This document shows positions 55,985 through 64,000 of a DNA stretch of 64,000 nt, piece by piece. The notes below the pieces were generated by a model that was given only the letters and a program-made list of their open reading frames with translations, had not been told where the DNA came from and searched no databases. The position numbers and the translations under genes were made by a program. Positions within the stretch are counted from its first letter, which is position 1. Each line of letters opens with the position of its first letter. The DNA is from Patescibacteria group bacterium (GTDB lineage: Bacteria > Patescibacteriota > Microgenomatia > UBA1406): the NCBI GenBank assembly GCA_041665145.1, contig JBAYJK010000001.1, positions 99,464 through 163,463 on the forward strand, written 5' to 3'.

Positions 55985-56024
55985 GTCTTCATAAGCTAGT
56001 GTGTGTATTTGTTATACTATTTTC

Positions 56025-56357
56025 ATGACAGATATACTCTTGGTTTATATCACGTGCGAAAGTGTCGAGCAGGCGAAGTCGATCGGAAAGCATTTAATGA
56101 ATAAAAGACTATGTGCTTGCGTAAATATTTTTCCGGATATGCACCCTATGTTTTTCTGGCCGCCGAAAGAAAACAAAATTGATGAAAGTAAAGAAGTGGT
56201 GTTAATTGCCAAAACAACCGAAAGCAAATATCAAGCATTGGAAGACGAGGTTCATAAAGTACACACATATGATGTTCCGTGTGTTATTGCTATCCCCACT
56301 GCACATGTCTCCAAAAAATATTATGACTGGTTAGTCGGGGAGATAAACGAACCGTAG
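56025..56357 (+). CDS. cutA: Divalent-cation tolerance protein CutA
   Basis: Conserved CutA1 blocks LCACVNIFP..MHPMFFWP, KTTESKYQAL, HTYDVPCVIAIP, YYDWL. The start may instead be 56001. Confidence 0.75.
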   Translation: MTDILLVYITCESVEQAKSIGKHLMNKRLCACVNIFPDMHPMFFWPPKENKIDESKEVVLIAKTTESKYQALEDEVHKVHTYDVPCVIAIPTAHVSKKYYDWLVGEINEP

Positions 56358-56367
56358 AGTTGAACTT

Positions 56368-57396
56368 ATGGATAAGCTATATATTCAACATGAAGGTCGA
56401 GTAATTACCACAGACAGTCAACATACTCATGTAATGGCTCTTGCCCTTGACCAGAAAAACAATTACCAACAAGGAATTGTGCGATGTATTACTGACAGAA
56501 TTGGGGATGTAAGGGTTAAGGGTTATGTTGATCGAAGTGAATTGTATAGGGTCGACGGTAATTCTCTAGAGTACTTTAAAATCGGTAAGAAACTTCAAAT
56601 GAAAAACGAGTCGAAAATATTGAATAGATTGGTTGCTAAAGATGAAGATTTTATTGGTTTTGAAGATCCGGATATCTGGCACGATGAAAAATTGAACCAG
56701 ATGCATGTTTATTTTACCGTACCGATTATACCTAAGGATAAAACTAAAAAGATTAAAATCCACCTTGGTCATGCGGTTGGCGAGAATCTTGACTCTCTTG
56801 AAATGACGATGCCAGTTCTTAATGGCTTTGCGGATAAAAGCGCGAAAGAGTTAGCTATAGCACCCGTAAACAAGAAAGGTTTCCGGTTTAACTTAATCGA
56901 ATCCCGTGATCGCTCGAACGGAACAACGTATTCGGTAGTGATGACGGCAATAGCTAAAGATATGAATGGCCCATGGCAGTATGGCAAAATAGTTTGTCAC
57001 CCAGGGATGCTCAATATCCCATGGATCGGTGGCCACGCCTCCCCGGGACCTCTCTTCTCTCAGAACTTTATTAATGTCGGGGAAGGTAAAGTAATAGGGT
57101 TGATGAATGGACGTGAAGCAGATAAGGTTGTTGGAGAAACTACAACGTATGGTATGTTTTCTATAGGACTATTTCTCTACGACTATGAAAACGGGATTAT
57201 TGATTGGATATCCCCCGAGCCATTTATAAGGGACGACGAAGCGCAGACGATCACCTTTGCCAGTCAATTCATCGAAACAGGTAGGGGTGAAGGAATTTTG
57301 TATGCACATGTGGACGACTCATTTGTCAGGGCCTACACATTGAAAGCGAATCTAATAAAAAGATTACTTCCTAGTACGAAAGTAGTACAATATTGA
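56368..57396 (+). CDS. Beta-propeller glycosidase-like protein (GH130/DUF377-like)
   Basis: An FEDPDIW element resembling the GH130 EDPR motif and predicted all-beta repeats; the assignment is tentative. Confidence 0.35.
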   Translation: MDKLYIQHEGRVITTDSQHTHVMALALDQKNNYQQGIVRCITDRIGDVRVKGYVDRSELYRVDGNSLEYFKIGKKLQMKNESKILNRLVAKDEDFIGFEDPDIWHDEKLNQMHVYFTVPIIPKDKTKKIKIHLGHAVGENLDSLEMTMPVLNGFADKSAKELAIAPVNKKGFRFNLIESRDRSNGTTYSVVMTAIAKDMNGPWQYGKIVCHPGMLNIPWIGGHASPGPLFSQNFINVGEGKVIGLMNGREADKVVGETTTYGMFSIGLFLYDYENGIIDWISPEPFIRDDEAQTITFASQFIETGRGEGILYAHVDDSFVRAYTLKANLIKRLLPSTKVVQY

Positions 57397-57399
57397 GCA

Positions 57400-58578
57400 A
57401 TGTCAACCTCCACTATTGTTTGCCCCCATTGTCACGAACCCATTGAATTAACAGATGCGCTGTCGCACCAAATACGAGAGGGTGTGGTTAAGGAATTTGA
57501 AGACAAACTGAAAGCAAAAGACGTAGAGGTTGAAAAACAGAAGCGTGCCATGTGGGAAAAAGCACAGGTAGAGGCAAAAAAGAAAATAGAAGCAGCACAA
57601 AAAGAACAGATGAAGGAATTGGAAGAAGAATTGGTTGAGAAAACTAAGAAATTGGACGAAGCGCGGAAAGTGGAACTCGAGATCCGTAAACAGCAGCGCC
57701 AACTCGAAGAAGACAGAAAAGATCTTGAATTGCAGGTTGCCCGAAAACTGGATGAAGAACGGAAAAAGGTTACCGAAGATGTTTTGAAAAAATCCCAGGA
57801 GGAACATGCTCTCAAAGACCGGGAAAAAGAAAAAGTAATTCAGGATCTTCAGAAATCTCTTGAAGATGCGCAACGTAAAGCGGCACAAGGTTCGCAGCAA
57901 ACACAAGGCGAAGTTCAGGAACTTGCGCTTGAAGAACTGTTAAAATCCGAGTTTCCATATGACGAAATTTTGGAAGTTGCCAAAGGTGTCCGCGGAGCGG
58001 ACGCAATACAAAAAGTGCGGGACCAGCGGGGCAGGGAATGCGGAACAATCGTATGGGAATCGAAACGGACAAAAGCCTGGACTGATGGGTGGATTCCTAA
58101 ATTAAAAGAAGACCAGCGCGCGTCGCATGCAGATGTCGCGGTTTTAGTGACGGAAGCGTTGCCGAAAGATATTACGAATTTCGGATACAAGAGCAATGTG
58201 TGGATAACCAACTACCCGTCTTTAATCGGTGTGGTTACTGTTTTGCGAACAATGCTCATACAACTCTCGAGCATCAAACAATCACAAACGGGTAAGGATG
58301 AAAAAATGGAAGCGTTGTATAACTACTTAATCGGTACGGAGTTCCGTCAGAAAATAGAAGCCATCGTCGACGGATTCACCACGATGAGAGATGACTTGCA
58401 ACGTGAAAAAGATGCATTCAGAAAGTTGTGGGCAAAACGCGAAAAACAGATCCAACAGGTTCTTGAAAATACCATCGACATGCATGGAAGTCTGCAGGGA
58501 CTGATCGGGAAGTCTTTGCCGGAGATAGGTAGTCTCGAGTTGCCCGCAGCTGAAGATACGCAAGATACTCTGCTTTGA
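57400..58578 (+). CDS. DUF2130-like protein: N-terminal CxxC zinc-ribbon, ~200-aa K/E-rich coiled coil, conserved C-terminal domain
   Basis: CPHCHEPIEL at the N-terminus, a long EEKLK-type heptad region, and the C-terminal block VRGADAIQKV...GTIVWESKRTKAWTDGWIPKLKED...VAVLVTEALP. Confidence 0.45.
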   Translation: MSTSTIVCPHCHEPIELTDALSHQIREGVVKEFEDKLKAKDVEVEKQKRAMWEKAQVEAKKKIEAAQKEQMKELEEELVEKTKKLDEARKVELEIRKQQRQLEEDRKDLELQVARKLDEERKKVTEDVLKKSQEEHALKDREKEKVIQDLQKSLEDAQRKAAQGSQQTQGEVQELALEELLKSEFPYDEILEVAKGVRGADAIQKVRDQRGRECGTIVWESKRTKAWTDGWIPKLKEDQRASHADVAVLVTEALPKDITNFGYKSNVWITNYPSLIGVVTVLRTMLIQLSSIKQSQTGKDEKMEALYNYLIGTEFRQKIEAIVDGFTTMRDDLQREKDAFRKLWAKREKQIQQVLENTIDMHGSLQGLIGKSLPEIGSLELPAAEDTQDTLL

Positions 58579-58608
58579 GAATTTTACTGCTTATATTCCA
58601 AATCTTGC

Positions 58609-58636
58609 TTGACAAATTTCTGTTACCTGGTATCCT
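58609..58636 (+). promoter_or_regulatory. Sigma70-type promoter of the copper operon (TTGACA -16- TGgTATCCT)
   Basis: TTGACA at 58609-58614, TG at 58628-58629, -10 TATCCT at 58631-58636. Confidence 0.5.
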
Positions 58637-58649
58637 GGGGGGGAGGATA
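58631..58649. promoter_or_regulatory. Putative CsoR/RcnR-family operator: TATCCT-GGGGGGG-AGGATA inverted repeat flanking a G7 tract
   Basis: A perfect 6-bp inverted repeat around G7, overlapping the -10 element. It has the same architecture as known RcnR/CsoR sites (AT-rich inverted repeat flanking a G/C tract). Confidence 0.55.
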
Positions 58650-58666
58650 GGAGAGGGGGAGATAGT

Positions 58667-58719
58667 TTTCAATTTTCAATTTACAGTTTTCAATAAATTA
58701 ACAAGTTTCAATTTTCAAT
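58667..58719 (+). repeat. Five copies of TTTCAAT (two tandem pairs) in the csoR 5' leader, last copy abutting the ATG
   Basis: TTTCAAT at 58667, 58674, 58688, 58706 and 58713; there is no Shine-Dalgarno sequence. Confidence 0.6.
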
Positions 58720-58983
58720 ATGAATAACTACCAGGAAAAACTTTTGCATCGGCTCAAAATAATTCGGGGACACCTGGATAAAGTTATCAAGATGGTTGAA
58801 GCGGATGAATATTGTATGGATATTATGCAGCAAACTACGGCCGTCGGGTCCGCATTAAAGGAAGCGGAAAATATGATTTTGGAGAATCACCTGAAAACAT
58901 GCGTAACCGAATCCATCGTCAATCATCGCGGCGTCGAGAAGAAAGTAGACGAAGTAATAAAAGTTTTCAGGGCGAGGAAATAA
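58720..58983 (+). CDS. csoR: CsoR-family copper-sensing transcriptional repressor (DUF156)
   Basis: LKIIRGHLDKVIKMVEADEYCMDIMQQTTAVGSALKEAENMILENHLKTCV: a C...H...C ligand fingerprint (x-C-H-C, Cu(I)-type) in the conserved helix pattern. Confidence 0.8.
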   Translation: MNNYQEKLLHRLKIIRGHLDKVIKMVEADEYCMDIMQQTTAVGSALKEAENMILENHLKTCVTESIVNHRGVEKKVDEVIKVFRARK

Positions 58984-58986
58984 TAT

Positions 58987-59343
58987 ATGGAAAAAATTAT
59001 TGTTACTCTATTCGGGATCATAGGAATTGCTGTAACGTATTGGTTTTTCTTTAAGAAGGAAGAACGGCAAGTTGAAGCGCATGGAACTATTCATATTACG
59101 GTTGATGGTGGTTATGTTCCGCAAGTTATCTCCATAAAAAATAATTCCAAAACAAAAATCATATTTACCAGGAAAGATCCAAACCCGTGCCTTGAAGATG
59201 TTCTTATTCCTGATTTCAAAATTAAACGCGCACTGCCGTTAAAAATACCCGTTTCAGTAACTCTCGAACCTCACAAAATCGGAGAATACCAGTTGTCGTG
59301 CGGCATGCACATGTTCCACGGCAAAATAATTGTCCATGAGTAA
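58987..59343 (+). CDS. Membrane-anchored cupredoxin-like copper-binding protein
   Basis: N-terminal TM; the C-terminal [18 protein letters not shown] matches the Cupredoxin_1 C-x-M-H-M-x-x-G motif of copper-resistance operon proteins. Confidence 0.7.
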
Positions 59344-61615
59344 AACAAAACAAGTGATCAAAATCAAGGGTATGCATTGCGCGTCTTGTGTATACACACT
59401 CGAGAAAGCGCTGAAAAATGTAAACGGTGTAGTGAATGCAAATGTTAATCTCGCAACTGAGCAGGCGCATGTTGAGTATGACTCCTCTGTTGCTCGTGAG
59501 CAAGATCTTAGTGATGCGGTGCAGGGGGCGGGGTATCAAACACAAATAGCATTAGAAGATGAAGTGCGCGAAAAGGAACAGGCAAAATCTGAAAAGAAAA
59601 AAGAGCTTAACGCGTTGCGCATTAAAGTTGTAGTCAGTTTAATTTTAGGAGGACTTATTGTATGGGGTAGCTTTCCTGGACTTGTTGCTACGTCACCACT
59701 GTTTTTACGCAACGGGATACTGCAGCTAGTTTTAGCGACTATTATCCAGTTCTGGGCGGGTCTGGATTTTTATCGTGCAACGATTCCTGCACTTAAACAC
59801 AGAACCGCAAATATGGACACCCTTGTTGCGGTGGGAACAAGTGTTGCATACATCTATTCCGTTGTTGTTACTTTTTTCCCGGGAATTGTTGCACAAACAG
59901 GGATAGAAGTAATGTCTTACTTTGACGTCTCGACGGTTGTTATTGCACTTATTCTGCTCGGGCGGTATTTTGAAGCGAAAGCGAAATCGGGAACATCGGA
60001 GGCAATAACTAAGTTGATAGGTCTTCAAGCAAAAACTGCACGTGTTTTGAGAAACGGAAAAGAAATTGATATTCCGCTTTCAGAAGTTGTGGTTGGTGAC
60101 ATTATTCGGGTACGACCGGGGGAAAAAATACCCGTTGATGGAGTTATTACCGAAGGAAGTTCATCTGTTGATGAATCTATGGTTACGGGAGAAAGTATGC
60201 CCACAGATAAAATAAAAGGAAGTCCTGTTATCGGAGCTACCATAAACAAAAATGGATCATTTCTCTATAAAGCAACCAAAATAGGATCTGAAACCGTGCT
60301 ATCTCAAATAATCAAACTTGTGCAGGAAGCACAAGGCAGTAAGGCGCCCATACAACGTTTAGCTGACGTGGTGTCGTCATATTTTGTTCCCATTGTGATT
60401 ATGCTCGCGTTGGCAACATTTGTTGTATGGTTTGACTTTGGCGGACAATCAGCGTTTATTTTTGCCATGCTTAATATGGTCGCGGTTCTGGTGATTGCGT
60501 GTCCGTGTGCAATGGGTCTTGCGACCCCAACGGCAATCATGGTCGGAACCGGAATAGGTGCTGAACATGGCATTCTCATTAAAGATGCGCAGGCACTGGA
60601 AACTGCACATAAAATCAATACGATTGTTTTTGATAAAACAGGAACGCTAACGAACGGAAAGCCGGTAATAACTGATATTATTGAAATTCAAAATCCTGCC
60701 TCGCCGGCAGGCGGGTCAAATGACAAACATCAAATGAAACCCAAAATTCAAAAGGAAGAAATTTTGAGGATAGCTGCGTCGTTGGAGAAGAATTCGGAAC
60801 ATCCGTTGGCAGAAGCTATTGTCAAAGAGTCGGAACATAGAAAAATTACGTTGGAAAAAGTCACCTCTTTCAAAGCTATTCCCGGTCACGGCGTTCAAGG
60901 TGCAATTGGTAAAAAGAACTATGTATTGGGCAAACCGTCTTTCATTAAAAATGCGCACAAAGTATCGGAAATTGAAGAATTGGAACGTGCCGGAAAAACG
61001 GTTATGGTTTTGGCACAGAACGAAACAGTAATTGGTGCGATCGCGGTTGCCGACACCGTGAAAGACACGGCCAAGAATGCAGTTTTAACGCTGCAGAGAA
61101 TGGGAATCGAGGTTCTCATGATTACCGGTGATAATGAAAGAACTGCACAAACGATCGGTAAGGAGATCGGGGTAGACAGGGTGCTTGCGGAAGTGCTTCC
61201 CGGCGAGAAGGAAACCGAAATCCGTAAATTGCAAAAAGACAACAAAGTTGTTGCGATGGTCGGTGACGGAATAAATGATGCTCCGGCACTCGCTGCGGCT
61301 GACGTTGGAATAGCTGTCGGAACTGGAACAGATGTAGCGATCGAAACCGCGGATATTATTCTGGTTAACAAAAACTTATTTACAGTTGTCTCGGCAATTC
61401 AACTTTCCAAGTCTACCATGAGGACCATTAAAACAAATCTCTTTTGGGCTTTCGGCTACAATATTGTTCTTATTCCTGTCGCAATGGGAGTGTTGTATCC
61501 GTTGTTTAACATCTTATTGAGTCCGATTTTTGCTTCAGCTGCTATGGCACTGTCAAGCATTTCAGTGGTTACGAATTCCTTATTATTAAAAAAAATTAAA
61601 CTTCAGAATGCTTAA
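59330..61615 (+). CDS. copA: Copper-translocating P1B-type ATPase
   Basis: N-terminal [18 protein letters not shown], the TM CPC motif ([12 protein letters not shown]), [15 protein letters not shown], and SEHPLA. Confidence 0.95.
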
Positions 61616-62966
61616 AAAAACAACGCTACATGTTCAGGGCATGCACTGTCCGTCATGCGAAATTCTTGTTACGGACAAATTTAAAGAAGTCGGTGGGGTG
61701 AAAAACGTGAAAGCAAATTTCAGAAATTGTGAAGCAGAAGTTACGTATTCGGGAGACCTTAATCTTAATAAACTGAACAGAAAAATCGAGAACTTCGGAT
61801 ACAAGGTCGTTCACGGGCCGATTCAAGAAGAGATTCAGGAACCGTTATTAAGTAGATTAATGGATGTATCGATAATTTCATTGGTTTTACTTTTCGTATA
61901 TTTTATCGCTCAGAAGTTAGATCTCATTCCGACAATAGGGGGATCGGCTGGTTTGACAGTAATAACGGCGGTTCTTTTGGGTTTGGTTGCTTCTGTTTCC
62001 ACCTGTATGGCTACTTCAGGAGCGCTGTTTTTGTCTACAATAGGGACGTTAACAACCAACAGTAAAGAGTTGATAGTTGATAGTCGATGGTCAACACACA
62101 AACTCATTCCGGCGATCAGTTTCAGTTTAGGAAGAATTATTTCATACGCGGTTGTCGGCTTTATAGCAGGGTATGTAGGAAACACGCTTACAAACAACCT
62201 GCAACTGGGGGCGCTGTTAACATTAGTCGTCTCGATTTTTATGATTCTGGTCGGTCTTGATATGGCTAAAATAATTTCCCTACAAAAGTATATGGCACAA
62301 ACTTTCTCAAAAGGGATATTCGAGAAATTGTCCGGTAAATTACGAGAAAACCCCCGAAGAACCGCCTTGTTTTTGGGTATGGTGACGGTATTACTGCCGT
62401 GCGGATTTACACAAACAGTTCTGGTTTACAGCATCGGTTTAGCAGACCCCGTACAAAGCATGTTGATGATGGCAGCGTTTGCTGTTGGCACAGTGCCGAC
62501 GCTTATAGTTATCGGGTTTGTGAATTCGTTTACCACATCGAGCTGGTACCCGATTTTGCAAAAAATTATGGGAGTGGTGGTTTTGTTTATCGGTGTCACC
62601 TATGTCATGAATTTCCTCTCATTGGCGGGTGTTTCTTTCCCGAATCTAGCCGTGCCATCTGCCAGACAACAGGAAGTGACAAATGAACCCGTGGTGAAAA
62701 ACGGCGTTCAGGAAATTGTCATGACGGTAGACGGACGCGGTTACTCACCGAGTTTTTTCAAAGTCAAGAAGGGAGTTCCTGTCCGATGGATAATTAAGGG
62801 AGAAAATGTTTACGGTTGTCAGGGATATTTAGTTGCTCCGAGAATGAATGTGCAGCAGGCGCTGAAACCGGGAGATAATGTTATCGAATTTACTCCAACG
62901 GAAAATGGAACATTACCTTTTTCGTGCGGTATGGGAATGTATCGCGGACAATTTCAGGTCGAGTAA
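61608..62966 (+). CDS. Tri-domain protein: N-terminal HMA (CxxC) domain + polytopic Cys-containing membrane domain (DsbD/CcdA- or TauE-like) + C-terminal cupredoxin-like domain
   Basis: [14 protein letters not shown] (HMA); 8-10 TM helices with intramembrane Cys ([18 protein letters not shown]); C-terminal [13 protein letters not shown] (Cupredoxin_1-like). The start overlaps the copA stop. Confidence 0.6.
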
Positions 62967-62982
62967 GCACGTGTCGTAAATT

Positions 62983-63831
62983 GTGCTATTATTTTTGATA
63001 ATGGATATTTCGGTTACCAAAGCAAACGGGCTCACTGAAGCATACAAAACGGAAAAGGTGCGAGCATCAATGACCCGCGCCGGTGTTCCCGAAGAATTTC
63101 AACCCCGATTGTTGTCAAAAATAGAAGGAGAACTGTACGACAAAATTTCCACGGCAAAAATTCTGGATATCATTATCGGCAGTCTGAAACAGATATACCC
63201 CCAAGGTCAGACGCGGTACCAACTGAAACGCGCAATTATGGAAATGGGACCAAGCGGGTTTCCGTTCGAGAAATTTGTCGCCCGTCTTCTGCACGAGTAT
63301 GGTTATTCGGTTACCACAGACGTTGTTTTGTGGGGAGAATGTGTCAGTCATGAAGTAGATGTGCTGGCAACAAAAGACATTCGGGAGTATTTTGTCGAAT
63401 GTAAATATCACAATCAACCGGGAAGCAGATCAGATGTTAAAACAGCCCTTTATGTGAAATCTCGCGGTGATGACTTGGCAGCGAAGATGAGACAGGACCC
63501 GAAAAATGCTGGGACACAATACGGTCCGTGGGTATTCACGAACACCAAATTTTCTTCTGATGCCATCACGTACGCCGAATGCAAGAACATCCGTCTGACG
63601 GGATGGAGTTATCCGCAGAAGGGTAATCTGCAGGAGATGGTTGAAACTAAACATTTGTATCCGATAACCTGCCTTACCTCTCTGACGCATGACGAAAAAA
63701 TGAAACTTTTGGACAGAAATATCGTTCTCATTAGCGAGTTGTACAAAGACACGGCACTTATCGACAGTTTTAATTTAACAGAAGAGCAACGCGATGCTTT
63801 GGAATACGAACACAAGTATTTATCCGACTAG
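62983..63831 (+). CDS. ATP-cone domain fused to Mrr-cat-like PD-(D/E)XK restriction-endonuclease-fold domain
   Basis: An N-terminal ATP-cone-like segment of about 90 aa (VTKANGLTEAYKTEKVRASM...KILDIIIGSL), followed by FEKFVARLLHEYGY...HEVDVLAT...YFVECKYH (D ... E-C-K nuclease motif). Confidence 0.55.
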   Translation: MLLFLIMDISVTKANGLTEAYKTEKVRASMTRAGVPEEFQPRLLSKIEGELYDKISTAKILDIIIGSLKQIYPQGQTRYQLKRAIMEMGPSGFPFEKFVARLLHEYGYSVTTDVVLWGECVSHEVDVLATKDIREYFVECKYHNQPGSRSDVKTALYVKSRGDDLAAKMRQDPKNAGTQYGPWVFTNTKFSSDAITYAECKNIRLTGWSYPQKGNLQEMVETKHLYPITCLTSLTHDEKMKLLDRNIVLISELYKDTALIDSFNLTEEQRDALEYEHKYLSD

Positions 63832-64000
63832 AATAAGCTAATTAACCCCCGCTTTTTTGCTACCTCGAACGACCGTTTCATGTAGATAATGACGAGAAAA
63901 AGATAAAAAAAGTTCAATCCGAAACTGATCAACAGGTCGGATATCTGAACCTGACCGGTACGAACAAACTGTCGTGTACTTTCAAAAATGTAGCTTGGCG
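63830..64000 (-). CDS. Partial CDS (C-terminal ~56 aa of a hydrophobic protein; 5' end outside window)
   Basis: The minus-strand frame is open from the window edge down to a stop at 63830-63832, which overlaps the convergent stop of the upstream gene; it carries no start codon within the window. Confidence 0.3.

Follow-up and report, generated by a model that had tools for sequence, protein, structure and literature searches.

Organization of the operon

The 64,000-nucleotide (nt) stretch of DNA analysed here, referred to below as the window, comes from a Patescibacteria group bacterium (assembly GCA_041665145.1, contig JBAYJK010000001.1, positions 99,464 to 163,463) and contains a copper-resistance operon whose last gene encodes a tri-domain membrane protein, the main subject of this work. 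Four open reading frames (ORFs) on the + strand fill positions 58720–62966. These are csoR, for the 87-amino-acid (aa) Cu(I)-sensing repressor (58720–58983; PF02583), a gene for a 118-aa protein of the CupA type, a putative membrane-anchored Cu(I) chaperone (58987–59343; PF13473 Cupredoxin_1, with a phmmer match to CupA), copA, for a P1B-1 Cu(I)-exporting ATPase (TIGR01511, with an HMA domain), and the gene for the 452-aa tri-domain protein (61608–62966), in which Pfam and AlphaFold2 indicate an HMA domain, seven transmembrane (TM) helices with a DsbD_2 core and a CupA-like cupredoxin domain. The copA frame ends at 61615 and begins at the ATG at 59336, which is the start chosen in public gene calls, or at a TTG at 59330.

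An earlier reading of the letters of this DNA, here called the original prediction, had given the same gene order, with a cupredoxin-like gene (CGMHMFHG motif) between csoR and copA and the 452-aa gene last, and had described all four genes as overlapping or abutting. Each ORF was found in its place, every motif quoted from the operon proteins is present in the translations, that of the 118-aa protein as part of SCGMHMFHG, and the spacing is +3 nt between csoR and the cupredoxin gene, −8 nt between the latter and copA (an overlap of 14 nt if copA begins at the TTG) and −8 nt between copA and the tri-domain gene. With such gaps, it is very likely that all four genes form a single transcript. 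Judged by its sequence, the operon taken together is a CsoR-CopA copper-resistance unit of an ordinary kind, and each of its domains comes from a known family.

CopA scores 625.9 bits (cutoff 397) against TIGR01511, the copper-translocating P-type ATPase family, and has a single N-terminal HMA domain (E = 9e-16) with the motif GMHCASC, followed by E1-E2_ATPase and Hydrolase domains. The motifs CPC, YN, MxxSS, DKTGT and GDGINDAP can all be read in its translation, which by these features is a P1B-1 Cu(I)-exporting ATPase.

CsoR (PF02583, 90.7 bits against a threshold of 22.8, E = 8e-26) carries the Cys-His-Cys triad C32, H57 and C61, read from the translation, with a spacing of 25/4 that we take to be that of the Cu(I) ligands C36-H61-C65 in Mycobacterium tuberculosis CsoR. 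Upstream of csoR there is a promoter-like site (58609–58636, + strand) composed of TTGACA and TATCCT separated by 16 nt, with a TG preceding the −10 element and a 10/12 match to the sigma-70 type. This is the strongest match of that type on the + strand of 58300–64000; the total of such sites was not above that in shuffled sequences, and the weight of this one rests on its position upstream of csoR and on its overlap with a palindrome. The palindrome, TATCCTGGGGGGGAGGATA (58631–58649, without strand), has 6-nt inverted arms around a G7 tract and overlaps the −10 element. An identical copy lies upstream of csoR in two of the related loci described below (L008 and L016), its 5-nt-arm core ATCCTGGGGGGGAGGAT is found in L017 and a near-identical palindrome in L010, and versions of the form ATACC...GGTAT occur in the more distant loci L069 and L070. 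Palindromes with a G tract are in the style of known CsoR operators, and TATCCTGGGGGGGAGGATA is a candidate operator to which CsoR would bind. From this operator-like palindrome, together with the ligand triad of CsoR, we infer that the whole operon is induced by copper. In the leader of csoR (58664–58720), located between the ATG and the candidate operator, AGTTTTCAAT occurs three times and there is also a 25-nt tandem direct repeat.

The CupA-type protein

The 118-aa protein matches Cupredoxin_1 with E = 1e-20 and, in a phmmer search of the PDB, CupA of Streptococcus pneumoniae (2mry/4f2e) with E = 9e-22 over 90 residues (27–116). Its residues C68, C105, M107 and M109 align with the Cu(I)-ligand residues of CupA, and every one of the 72 homologues found has CxMxM. 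The ligands in CupA are C74 and C111 for one Cu(I) and C74, M113 and M115 for a second, and the protein is able to reduce Cu(II) (PMC5646241). According to reviews, CupA is limited to a few streptococci (PMC7558416; PMC5646241), and in the full-text literature we found no description of CupA-type chaperones outside streptococci.

A hydrophobic N-terminal TM helix occupies residues ∼ 4–22, and in the 72 homologues the mean number of Lys and Arg (K/R) residues is 0.9 before this helix and 2.6 after it. The stand-alone cupredoxin domain is thus probably cytoplasmic, on the side of the membrane opposite to the fused one. The two cupredoxin modules of the operon can be aligned by phmmer (20 bits) with all four ligands in register (C404/C440/M442/M444 of the tri-domain protein with C68/C105/M107/M109); BLASTP gave no match between them. 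By sequence, both the 118-aa protein and the C-terminal domain of the tri-domain protein are CupA homologues with the full C...CxMxM ligand set, and with the first predicted inside and the second outside, the two faces of the membrane would each carry a site of the CupA type.

Domain architecture and topology of the tri-domain protein

In the 452-aa protein all three domains that had been anticipated were recovered by Pfam: HMA (PF00403, residues 6–66, E = 5e-13, 49.8 bits against 24.8), DsbD_2 (PF13386, residues 120–330, E = 2e-32, 113.3 bits against 24.9, covering positions 1–198 of the 199-position profile) and Cupredoxin_1 (residues 364–449, E = 1e-6). The membrane part also matches DsbD_TM (E = 6e-7, 29.5 bits, cutoff 27.1). 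The HMA domain (residues 4–68; 61617–61811, + strand), predicted to be cytoplasmic, carries GMHCPSC with G11, C14 and C17, is modelled as beta-alpha-beta-beta-alpha-beta and is 30% identical to the HMA domain of CopA. An extra helix, TM0 (residues 80–103; 61845–61916, + strand), joins this domain, predicted inside, to the N-terminus of the six-helix DsbD_2 core, predicted outside. The core (residues 116–340; 61953–62627, + strand) contains the two intramembrane cysteines that had been noted earlier, located at C133 in TM1 (STCMATSG) and C265 in TM4 (LPCGFTQ), together with R176, M212 and M288. The CupA-like cupredoxin domain with C404, C440, M442 and M444 comes last (residues 362–452; 62691–62963, + strand) and is predicted to be extracytoplasmic.

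The AlphaFold2 model (predicted local distance difference test score, pLDDT, 79; predicted TM-score 0.73) has one helix after the HMA domain, then six helices and finally a beta-sandwich, with no eighth helix; the breaks seen in core helices 1 and 4 coincide exactly with C133 and C265. Hydropathy is consistent with seven helices as well, TM0 giving a peak of 2.14 at residues 84–102. The original prediction had assumed 8–10 TM helices, which is too many: we count seven (1 + 6).

The mean number of K/R residues in 46 homologues is 5.5 in the loop that joins core helices 3 and 4, as opposed to 0–0.4 in the loops predicted to lie outside, and the K/R-rich loop 220–250 is predicted to face inward. 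Seven helices with this charge pattern point to a topology in which the HMA domain is inside and the CupA-like domain outside, which is the arrangement proposed originally. The relatives from Deinococcus, Tsukamurella and Streptomyces agree with it: they consist of DsbD_2 and Cupredoxin_1 only, start at core helix 1 and are followed by a separate small HMA gene. TM0 and the HMA domain are therefore absent together in these split forms, so that TM0 appears to serve to place the HMA domain opposite the N-terminus of the core.

The likeness of the C-terminal domain to CupA is apparent from sequence (phmmer E = 8e-11) and from the model, for which the best Foldseek match of the cupredoxin domain is CupA 4f2e (target TM-score 0.88, root mean square deviation 1.1 Å, 38% identity), the next being the metal-binding domain (MBD) of pneumococcal CopA (4f2f). 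The top 50 PDB matches for the full model were all cupredoxin-type folds, so that the membrane fold could not be compared in this way. Sequence searches of the PDB with the membrane domain gave no match at E ≤ 10, whether the query was one sequence or a profile of 10, and a membrane-only AlphaFold2 model from 10 sequences (pLDDT 53) was too poor for use. The membrane domain had been likened to both CcdA/DsbD and TauE-type permeases. The former likeness holds, as seen from DsbD_2, DsbD_TM and the cysteine alignment given below, whereas the latter does not, there being no PF01925 (TauE) match in the protein at E ≤ 0.01.

Conserved residues

Conservation was assessed in 86 sequences from four phyla. 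The HMA motif GM.C..C is present in all 83 relatives that possess an HMA domain, and C404, C440, M442, G443 and M444 of the cupredoxin domain are 100% conserved. In the membrane core, C133 in TM1 is conserved in 99% of the sequences and the adjacent M134 in 72%; R176 in TM2 and M212 in TM3 are both conserved in 97% and M288 in TM5 in 92%. In TM4, P264-C265-G266 is conserved in 100%, T268 in 98%, Q269 in 95% and Q272 in 93%. Pro-Cys is found only on TM4 (P264-C265); in TM1, the residue before C133 is T132 in Patescibacteria and Ser or His in other phyla. The homologue from Acetoanaerobium noterae, for example, has HCLTMCGG in TM1, MPCGPLQ in TM4 and CWMGM in the cupredoxin domain.

No thioredoxin-fold domain was detected by Pfam in the tri-domain protein or elsewhere in the operon. 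Residues 116–324 of the membrane domain match NF040495 (ArsG) with E = 3e-9 at 36.6 bits, far under the family cutoff of 200, so that the protein is not a member of ArsG.

Distribution and gene neighbourhoods

A profile of the 46 homologues was run against a 1.84-billion-protein library. It found 1,406 50%-identity cluster representatives at E ≤ 1e-30, the best 150 of which match essentially the whole profile length, and on these counts, together with the conserved cysteines and methionines described above, the tri-domain architecture is far beyond chance. In a species-level collection with one genome per species, at least 592 stretches encode a relative; the sources among the stretches listed are mostly Microgenomates, Parcubacteria, Peregrinibacteria and WWE3, with one Woesearchaeota record. 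Cultured organisms include the Clostridia member A. noterae (strain DSL2, NZ_CP154629, at about 808.3–809.8 kb), where the same three-domain protein is followed by copA. Many third-party metagenome-assembled genome (MAG) records with a Patescibacteria-type operon (within L002–L078) are titled 'uncultured Gammaproteobacteria', 'Pseudomonadales', 'Bdellovibrionales' or 'Methanosarcinales', and these titles look unreliable as taxonomy.

For neighbourhood counts, 81 genes in 80 loci were kept. In 59 of the 81 cases, a copA gene is located no more than 600 nt away in the same orientation (upstream in 11, downstream in 44 and on both sides in four), which upholds the tight linkage to CopA supposed at the outset. 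Among the 55 genes with 2.5 kb of flanking sequence on both sides, copA is adjacent in 42 and within ∼ 3 kb in eight more, and the locus contains none in five. csoR is found within 4 kb in 30 cases, often directly before the tri-domain gene.

About 27 of the 81 genes encode variants of roughly 600 aa (L020, L022, L023, L025, L048 and others), in which the first CupA-like domain is followed by a Cys/Gly-rich linker (GSCG...GGCGCG; e.g. GSCGSSGGCGCGGG) and a second cupredoxin with GCMG...CAMG. They are often accompanied by a copZ gene and a two-HMA CopA. A DsbA-like gene (Thioredoxin_4/DSBA, CPFC; e.g. L025:5211–5990) is near the tri-domain gene in 14 of the 80 loci, and its product is probably secreted, having a hydrophobic N-terminus. 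No MerA cluster was found in the 80 Patescibacteria-type neighbourhoods. Elsewhere, the Tsukamurella relative lies between a P1B-ATPase and merA, and the Deinococcus relative is near merB and a gene for a MerR-family regulator.

Two further genes recur. A PAP2 phosphatase is encoded in 12 of the 80 loci, and in 13 of them a Cys-rich polytopic membrane protein (CSVCS, CCGNSTAFPDCNHG) without a Pfam match is encoded no more than 4 kb from the tri-domain gene (e.g. L012:616–2040). A DsbD_2-only relative of 266 aa, with HCLGMCGP in TM1, is found on plasmid pHBOR01 of Halogeometricum borinquense (L082), directly before a P-type ATPase and beside subunits I and II of a ba3-type cytochrome oxidase. 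Haloarchaeal members of this family may have a role in the assembly of cuproenzymes instead of in detoxification.

Other genes near the operon

A gene for CutA1 (divalent-ion tolerance) lies at 56001–56357, 2.4 kb upstream of csoR. In Escherichia coli, cutA1 is located beside cutA2, which is dsbD, and the occurrence of CutA1 near a DsbD-type protein is thus a curiosity. Between CutA1 and a DUF2130 gene there is a 342-aa ORF (56368–57396) without a Pfam match at E ≤ 0.01. On the other side, a gene at 62983–63831 that encodes an Mrr_cat restriction-endonuclease domain, with a weak ATP-cone match, begins 16–28 nt past the stop codon of the tri-domain gene. No terminator-like site was found between the two, and the Mrr_cat gene may be co-transcribed with the tri-domain gene. 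None of these four genes has a homologue in the 80 related loci and for this reason we have left them out of the system.

Possible function

The reading that we tentatively favour, while stopping short of calling it probable, is that the tri-domain protein forms a CsoR-induced Cu(I) relay that works by ligand exchange alongside CopA and exports Cu(I) or presents it outside. On this reading, a rise in cytoplasmic Cu(I) would cause CsoR to leave the G-tract palindrome over the −10 element, and the four genes would be transcribed together. The 118-aa CupA-type chaperone at the inner membrane face and the HMA domains would gather Cu(I), which CopA would export at the expense of ATP. In parallel, the CxxC of the tri-domain HMA would hand Cu(I) to C133 (TM1) and C265 (TM4), aided by the thioethers of M134, M212 and M288. 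The core would then switch access and pass the ion to the outer CupA-like domain, with C404/C440 as the high-affinity and M442/M444 as the low-affinity site, and this domain would keep Cu(I) or release it outside the cell. What the sequences show is the domains with their homologies, the invariant ligands, a gene spacing that fits co-transcription and a link to copA and csoR that is kept in hundreds of genomes and in four phyla. The substrate Cu(I), the outward direction and the coupling, which might be to protons, a mode used by other LysE-superfamily exporters, are inferred.

Three thiolate pairs are arranged in series across the membrane, namely the HMA CxxC (C14/C17), C133/C265 and the CupA site C404/C440. 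We favour the Cu(I) relay because each of the two soluble partners has a copper-chaperone fold and retains its ligands, because the cytoplasmic partner, fused or adjacent, is always an HMA domain and never a thioredoxin, and because the conserved membrane methionines and the HCxxMCG motif of relatives suit the binding of a soft metal. It is favoured also by the membrane domain itself, since ArsG, the sole characterised NCBIfam family that it matches, is described as an efflux permease, and since the LysE superfamily, in which DsbD is placed, consists of exporters (PMC4608589). The longer variants, which add the GSCG...GGCGCG linker and a second cupredoxin on the predicted outside, speak for metal over protein-thiol chemistry. 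Copper detoxification in particular is favoured by the P1B-1 CopA, the Cys-His-Cys triad of CsoR, the conserved palindrome, the adjacency of csoR and copA and the lack of a MerA cluster. There is also a substantial chance, although less than even, that the protein belongs to a new class of copper transporter in which a CcdA-type core with two cysteines has been re-purposed for Cu(I) transfer from a cytoplasmic to an extracytoplasmic chaperone domain in one polypeptide. Members of this class would accompany CopA in hundreds of species of Patescibacteria and would occur, in fused or split form, in Clostridia, Actinomycetota and Deinococcota. That the protein was not recognised as characterised agrees with our search of the full-text literature, which found no published characterisation, no paper on a fusion or partnership of HMA, DsbD_2 and CupA-like domains, and no description of the near-obligate pairing of this family with copA.

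Several points weigh against a Cu(I) relay. The tri-domain family is known from sequence and predicted models alone. In a cell that has CopA, the need for a second copper exit is not evident, and an unpowered exporter of Cu+ would oppose the membrane potential, the coupling residue not being established. The actinobacterial and Deinococcus forms have no M134. In a BLASTP alignment with a PF02683 CcdA, C133 falls on the cysteine of the SPC motif and C265 on that of TPC, both redox-active, so that the core could carry electrons instead of metal; the known job of CcdA is electron transfer, not metal transfer. In addition, the DsbA-like neighbour in 14 of the 80 loci hints at thiol-redox activity outside the cell.

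The cysteine alignment and the DsbA-like genes both count in favour of an electron relay of the DsbD/CcdA/ScsB type, in which reducing equivalents from the cytoplasm would pass through C133/C265 and keep the outer C404/C440 reduced, either for Cu(I) binding or for the extracytoplasmic reduction of Cu(II) to Cu(I). The three cysteine pairs in series, with the beta-sandwich as outer acceptor, resemble the cascade of cysteine pairs in DsbD, and the DsbD_TM match is above its cutoff. CupA reduces Cu(II) via C74/C111, and the source that re-reduces these cysteines is unknown (PMC5646241); the DsbD-class protein ScsB has been tied to copper tolerance (PMC3322552) and the DsbD family is listed with roles in copper and mercury resistance (PMC4608589). 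However, the cytoplasmic partner is an HMA domain and not a thioredoxin fold, the HMA CxxC is not known as an electron donor, and a thioredoxin-like domain is neither fused to the protein nor encoded in the operon. Furthermore, the 'PC' proline of CcdA TM1 is replaced (STC), and the conservation of the membrane methionines and of HCxxMCG in relatives would have no purpose in disulfide exchange. We regard an electron relay as rather unlikely, but as the main rival of the Cu(I) relay.

The adjacency to copA in either order would suit a protein that captures Cu(I) on the outside as it leaves CopA, as an acceptor or buffer, and prevents re-entry of the metal, its membrane domain and HMA serving mainly for anchoring and docking, or for regulation. 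Such a role would resemble that of CusF in Gram-negatives or of the surface lipoprotein CopL in Staphylococcus. It would fit the expansion of the outer part by Cys-rich sequence and a second cupredoxin in the ∼ 600-aa variants, and the similarity of the tri-domain HMA to that of CopA (30% identity as noted above, with GMHC in both) would suit docking. But a plain anchor would not keep C133, P264-C265-G266, T268, Q269, R176, M212 and M288 at 92–100% over four phyla, nor would it need a cytoplasmic metallochaperone domain, and this makes the buffer role improbable.

With a metal-binding domain outside, two cysteines in the membrane and an HMA domain inside, the protein has the layout of the relay for mercury uptake, and it could in principle work inward as in MerP-MerT-NmerA, passing Cu(I), Ag(I) or Hg(II) from the outer domain via the cysteine pair to the HMA domain and then to CopA or, in some relatives, to MerA. 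The mer contexts of the Tsukamurella and Deinococcus relatives are consistent with this, and inward movement of a cation would require no energy input. In Patescibacteria, however, the gene stands under CsoR with copA and would be on at excess copper, when import is harmful, and importing copper merely to re-export it would be futile. A mercury role of the Patescibacteria form was rejected, as its neighbourhoods have no MerA cluster; owing to the actinobacterial contexts, we keep an inward relay as a minor rival to which we give little credence.

An NCBI MAG protein with 100% identity to the tri-domain protein is called 'sulfite exporter TauE/SafE family protein [Patescibacteria group bacterium]', a family name used by both NCBI and JGI, but the idea of a TauE/SafE-type sulfite or organosulfonate exporter that lies here by chance is extremely implausible and was rejected, with DsbD_2 and DsbD_TM matched instead of PF01925 and no sulfite logic in the two fused copper-type domains or the copA/csoR neighbourhood.

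Relation to known systems

Copper export across the bacterial cytoplasmic membrane is attributed almost wholly to P1B-ATPases, and Cu(I) acceptors on the outside of single-membrane cells are poorly known. If the tri-domain protein moves Cu(I), cells would have a second route for copper that does not depend on ATP, and nature would offer an example of a conduit from chaperone to chaperone; if electrons are what it moves, it would be the so far missing source of reductant for a site of the CupA type and form an extracellular redox system that handles copper. Either outcome would extend CupA biology far past streptococci, and the misleading TauE/SafE name of public homologues can be corrected. 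With cultured carriers such as A. noterae, Streptomyces mirabilis (pI), Deinococcus sp. QL22 and Tsukamurella, the question is testable.

With CcdA, DsbD and ScsB (TC 5.A.1) the tri-domain protein has in common a six-helix 3 + 3 core with cysteines in helices 1 and 4, core termini predicted to face outward, attached soluble domains with cysteine pairs and historical links to copper tolerance. Unlike them, it has an added N-terminal helix and a cytoplasmic HMA domain, no thioredoxin-fold domains, an outer domain with the fold of a Cu(I) chaperone, STC instead of PC in TM1, and conserved methionines and an arginine in the membrane. CcdA, DsbD and ScsB are electron carriers, to which the tri-domain protein is likened by sequence alone. 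The likeness to ArsG (NF040495), which is cited as an efflux transporter for organic arsenicals (PMC9144182), is limited to the membrane domain: ArsG has no HMA or cupredoxin domain, and its substrate and operon context differ.

The Patescibacteria loci, with no merA in the 80 neighbourhoods, differ from those of the MerP-MerT-NmerA system, which is alike in the handover of a soft metal from an outer binder to a membrane cysteine pair and on to an inner HMA domain. Its membrane fold is unrelated, its outer binder is itself an HMA domain, and its direction is inward, to a reductase. CusF and CopL are similar in being copper-induced (as the tri-domain gene is expected to be), encoded with export machinery and able to bind Cu(I) outside the cytoplasmic membrane. 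They differ in fold and are soluble or lipid-anchored, not fused to a cysteine-bearing polytopic domain and a cytoplasmic chaperone.

The closest parallel to the smaller protein is S. pneumoniae CupA, which the 118-aa protein resembles in length class, N-terminal anchor helix, cupredoxin domain, the C...CxMxM ligands and the place of its gene directly before copA. The host, however, is a member of the Patescibacteria instead of a streptococcus, the regulator is CsoR rather than CopY, and the cognate CopA has a ferredoxin-like HMA domain, not a cupredoxin MBD. The C-terminal domain of the tri-domain protein is likewise similar to CupA in fold and ligands, but whereas CupA is described as acting at the cytoplasmic side of the membrane, this fused copy is predicted to be extracytoplasmic.

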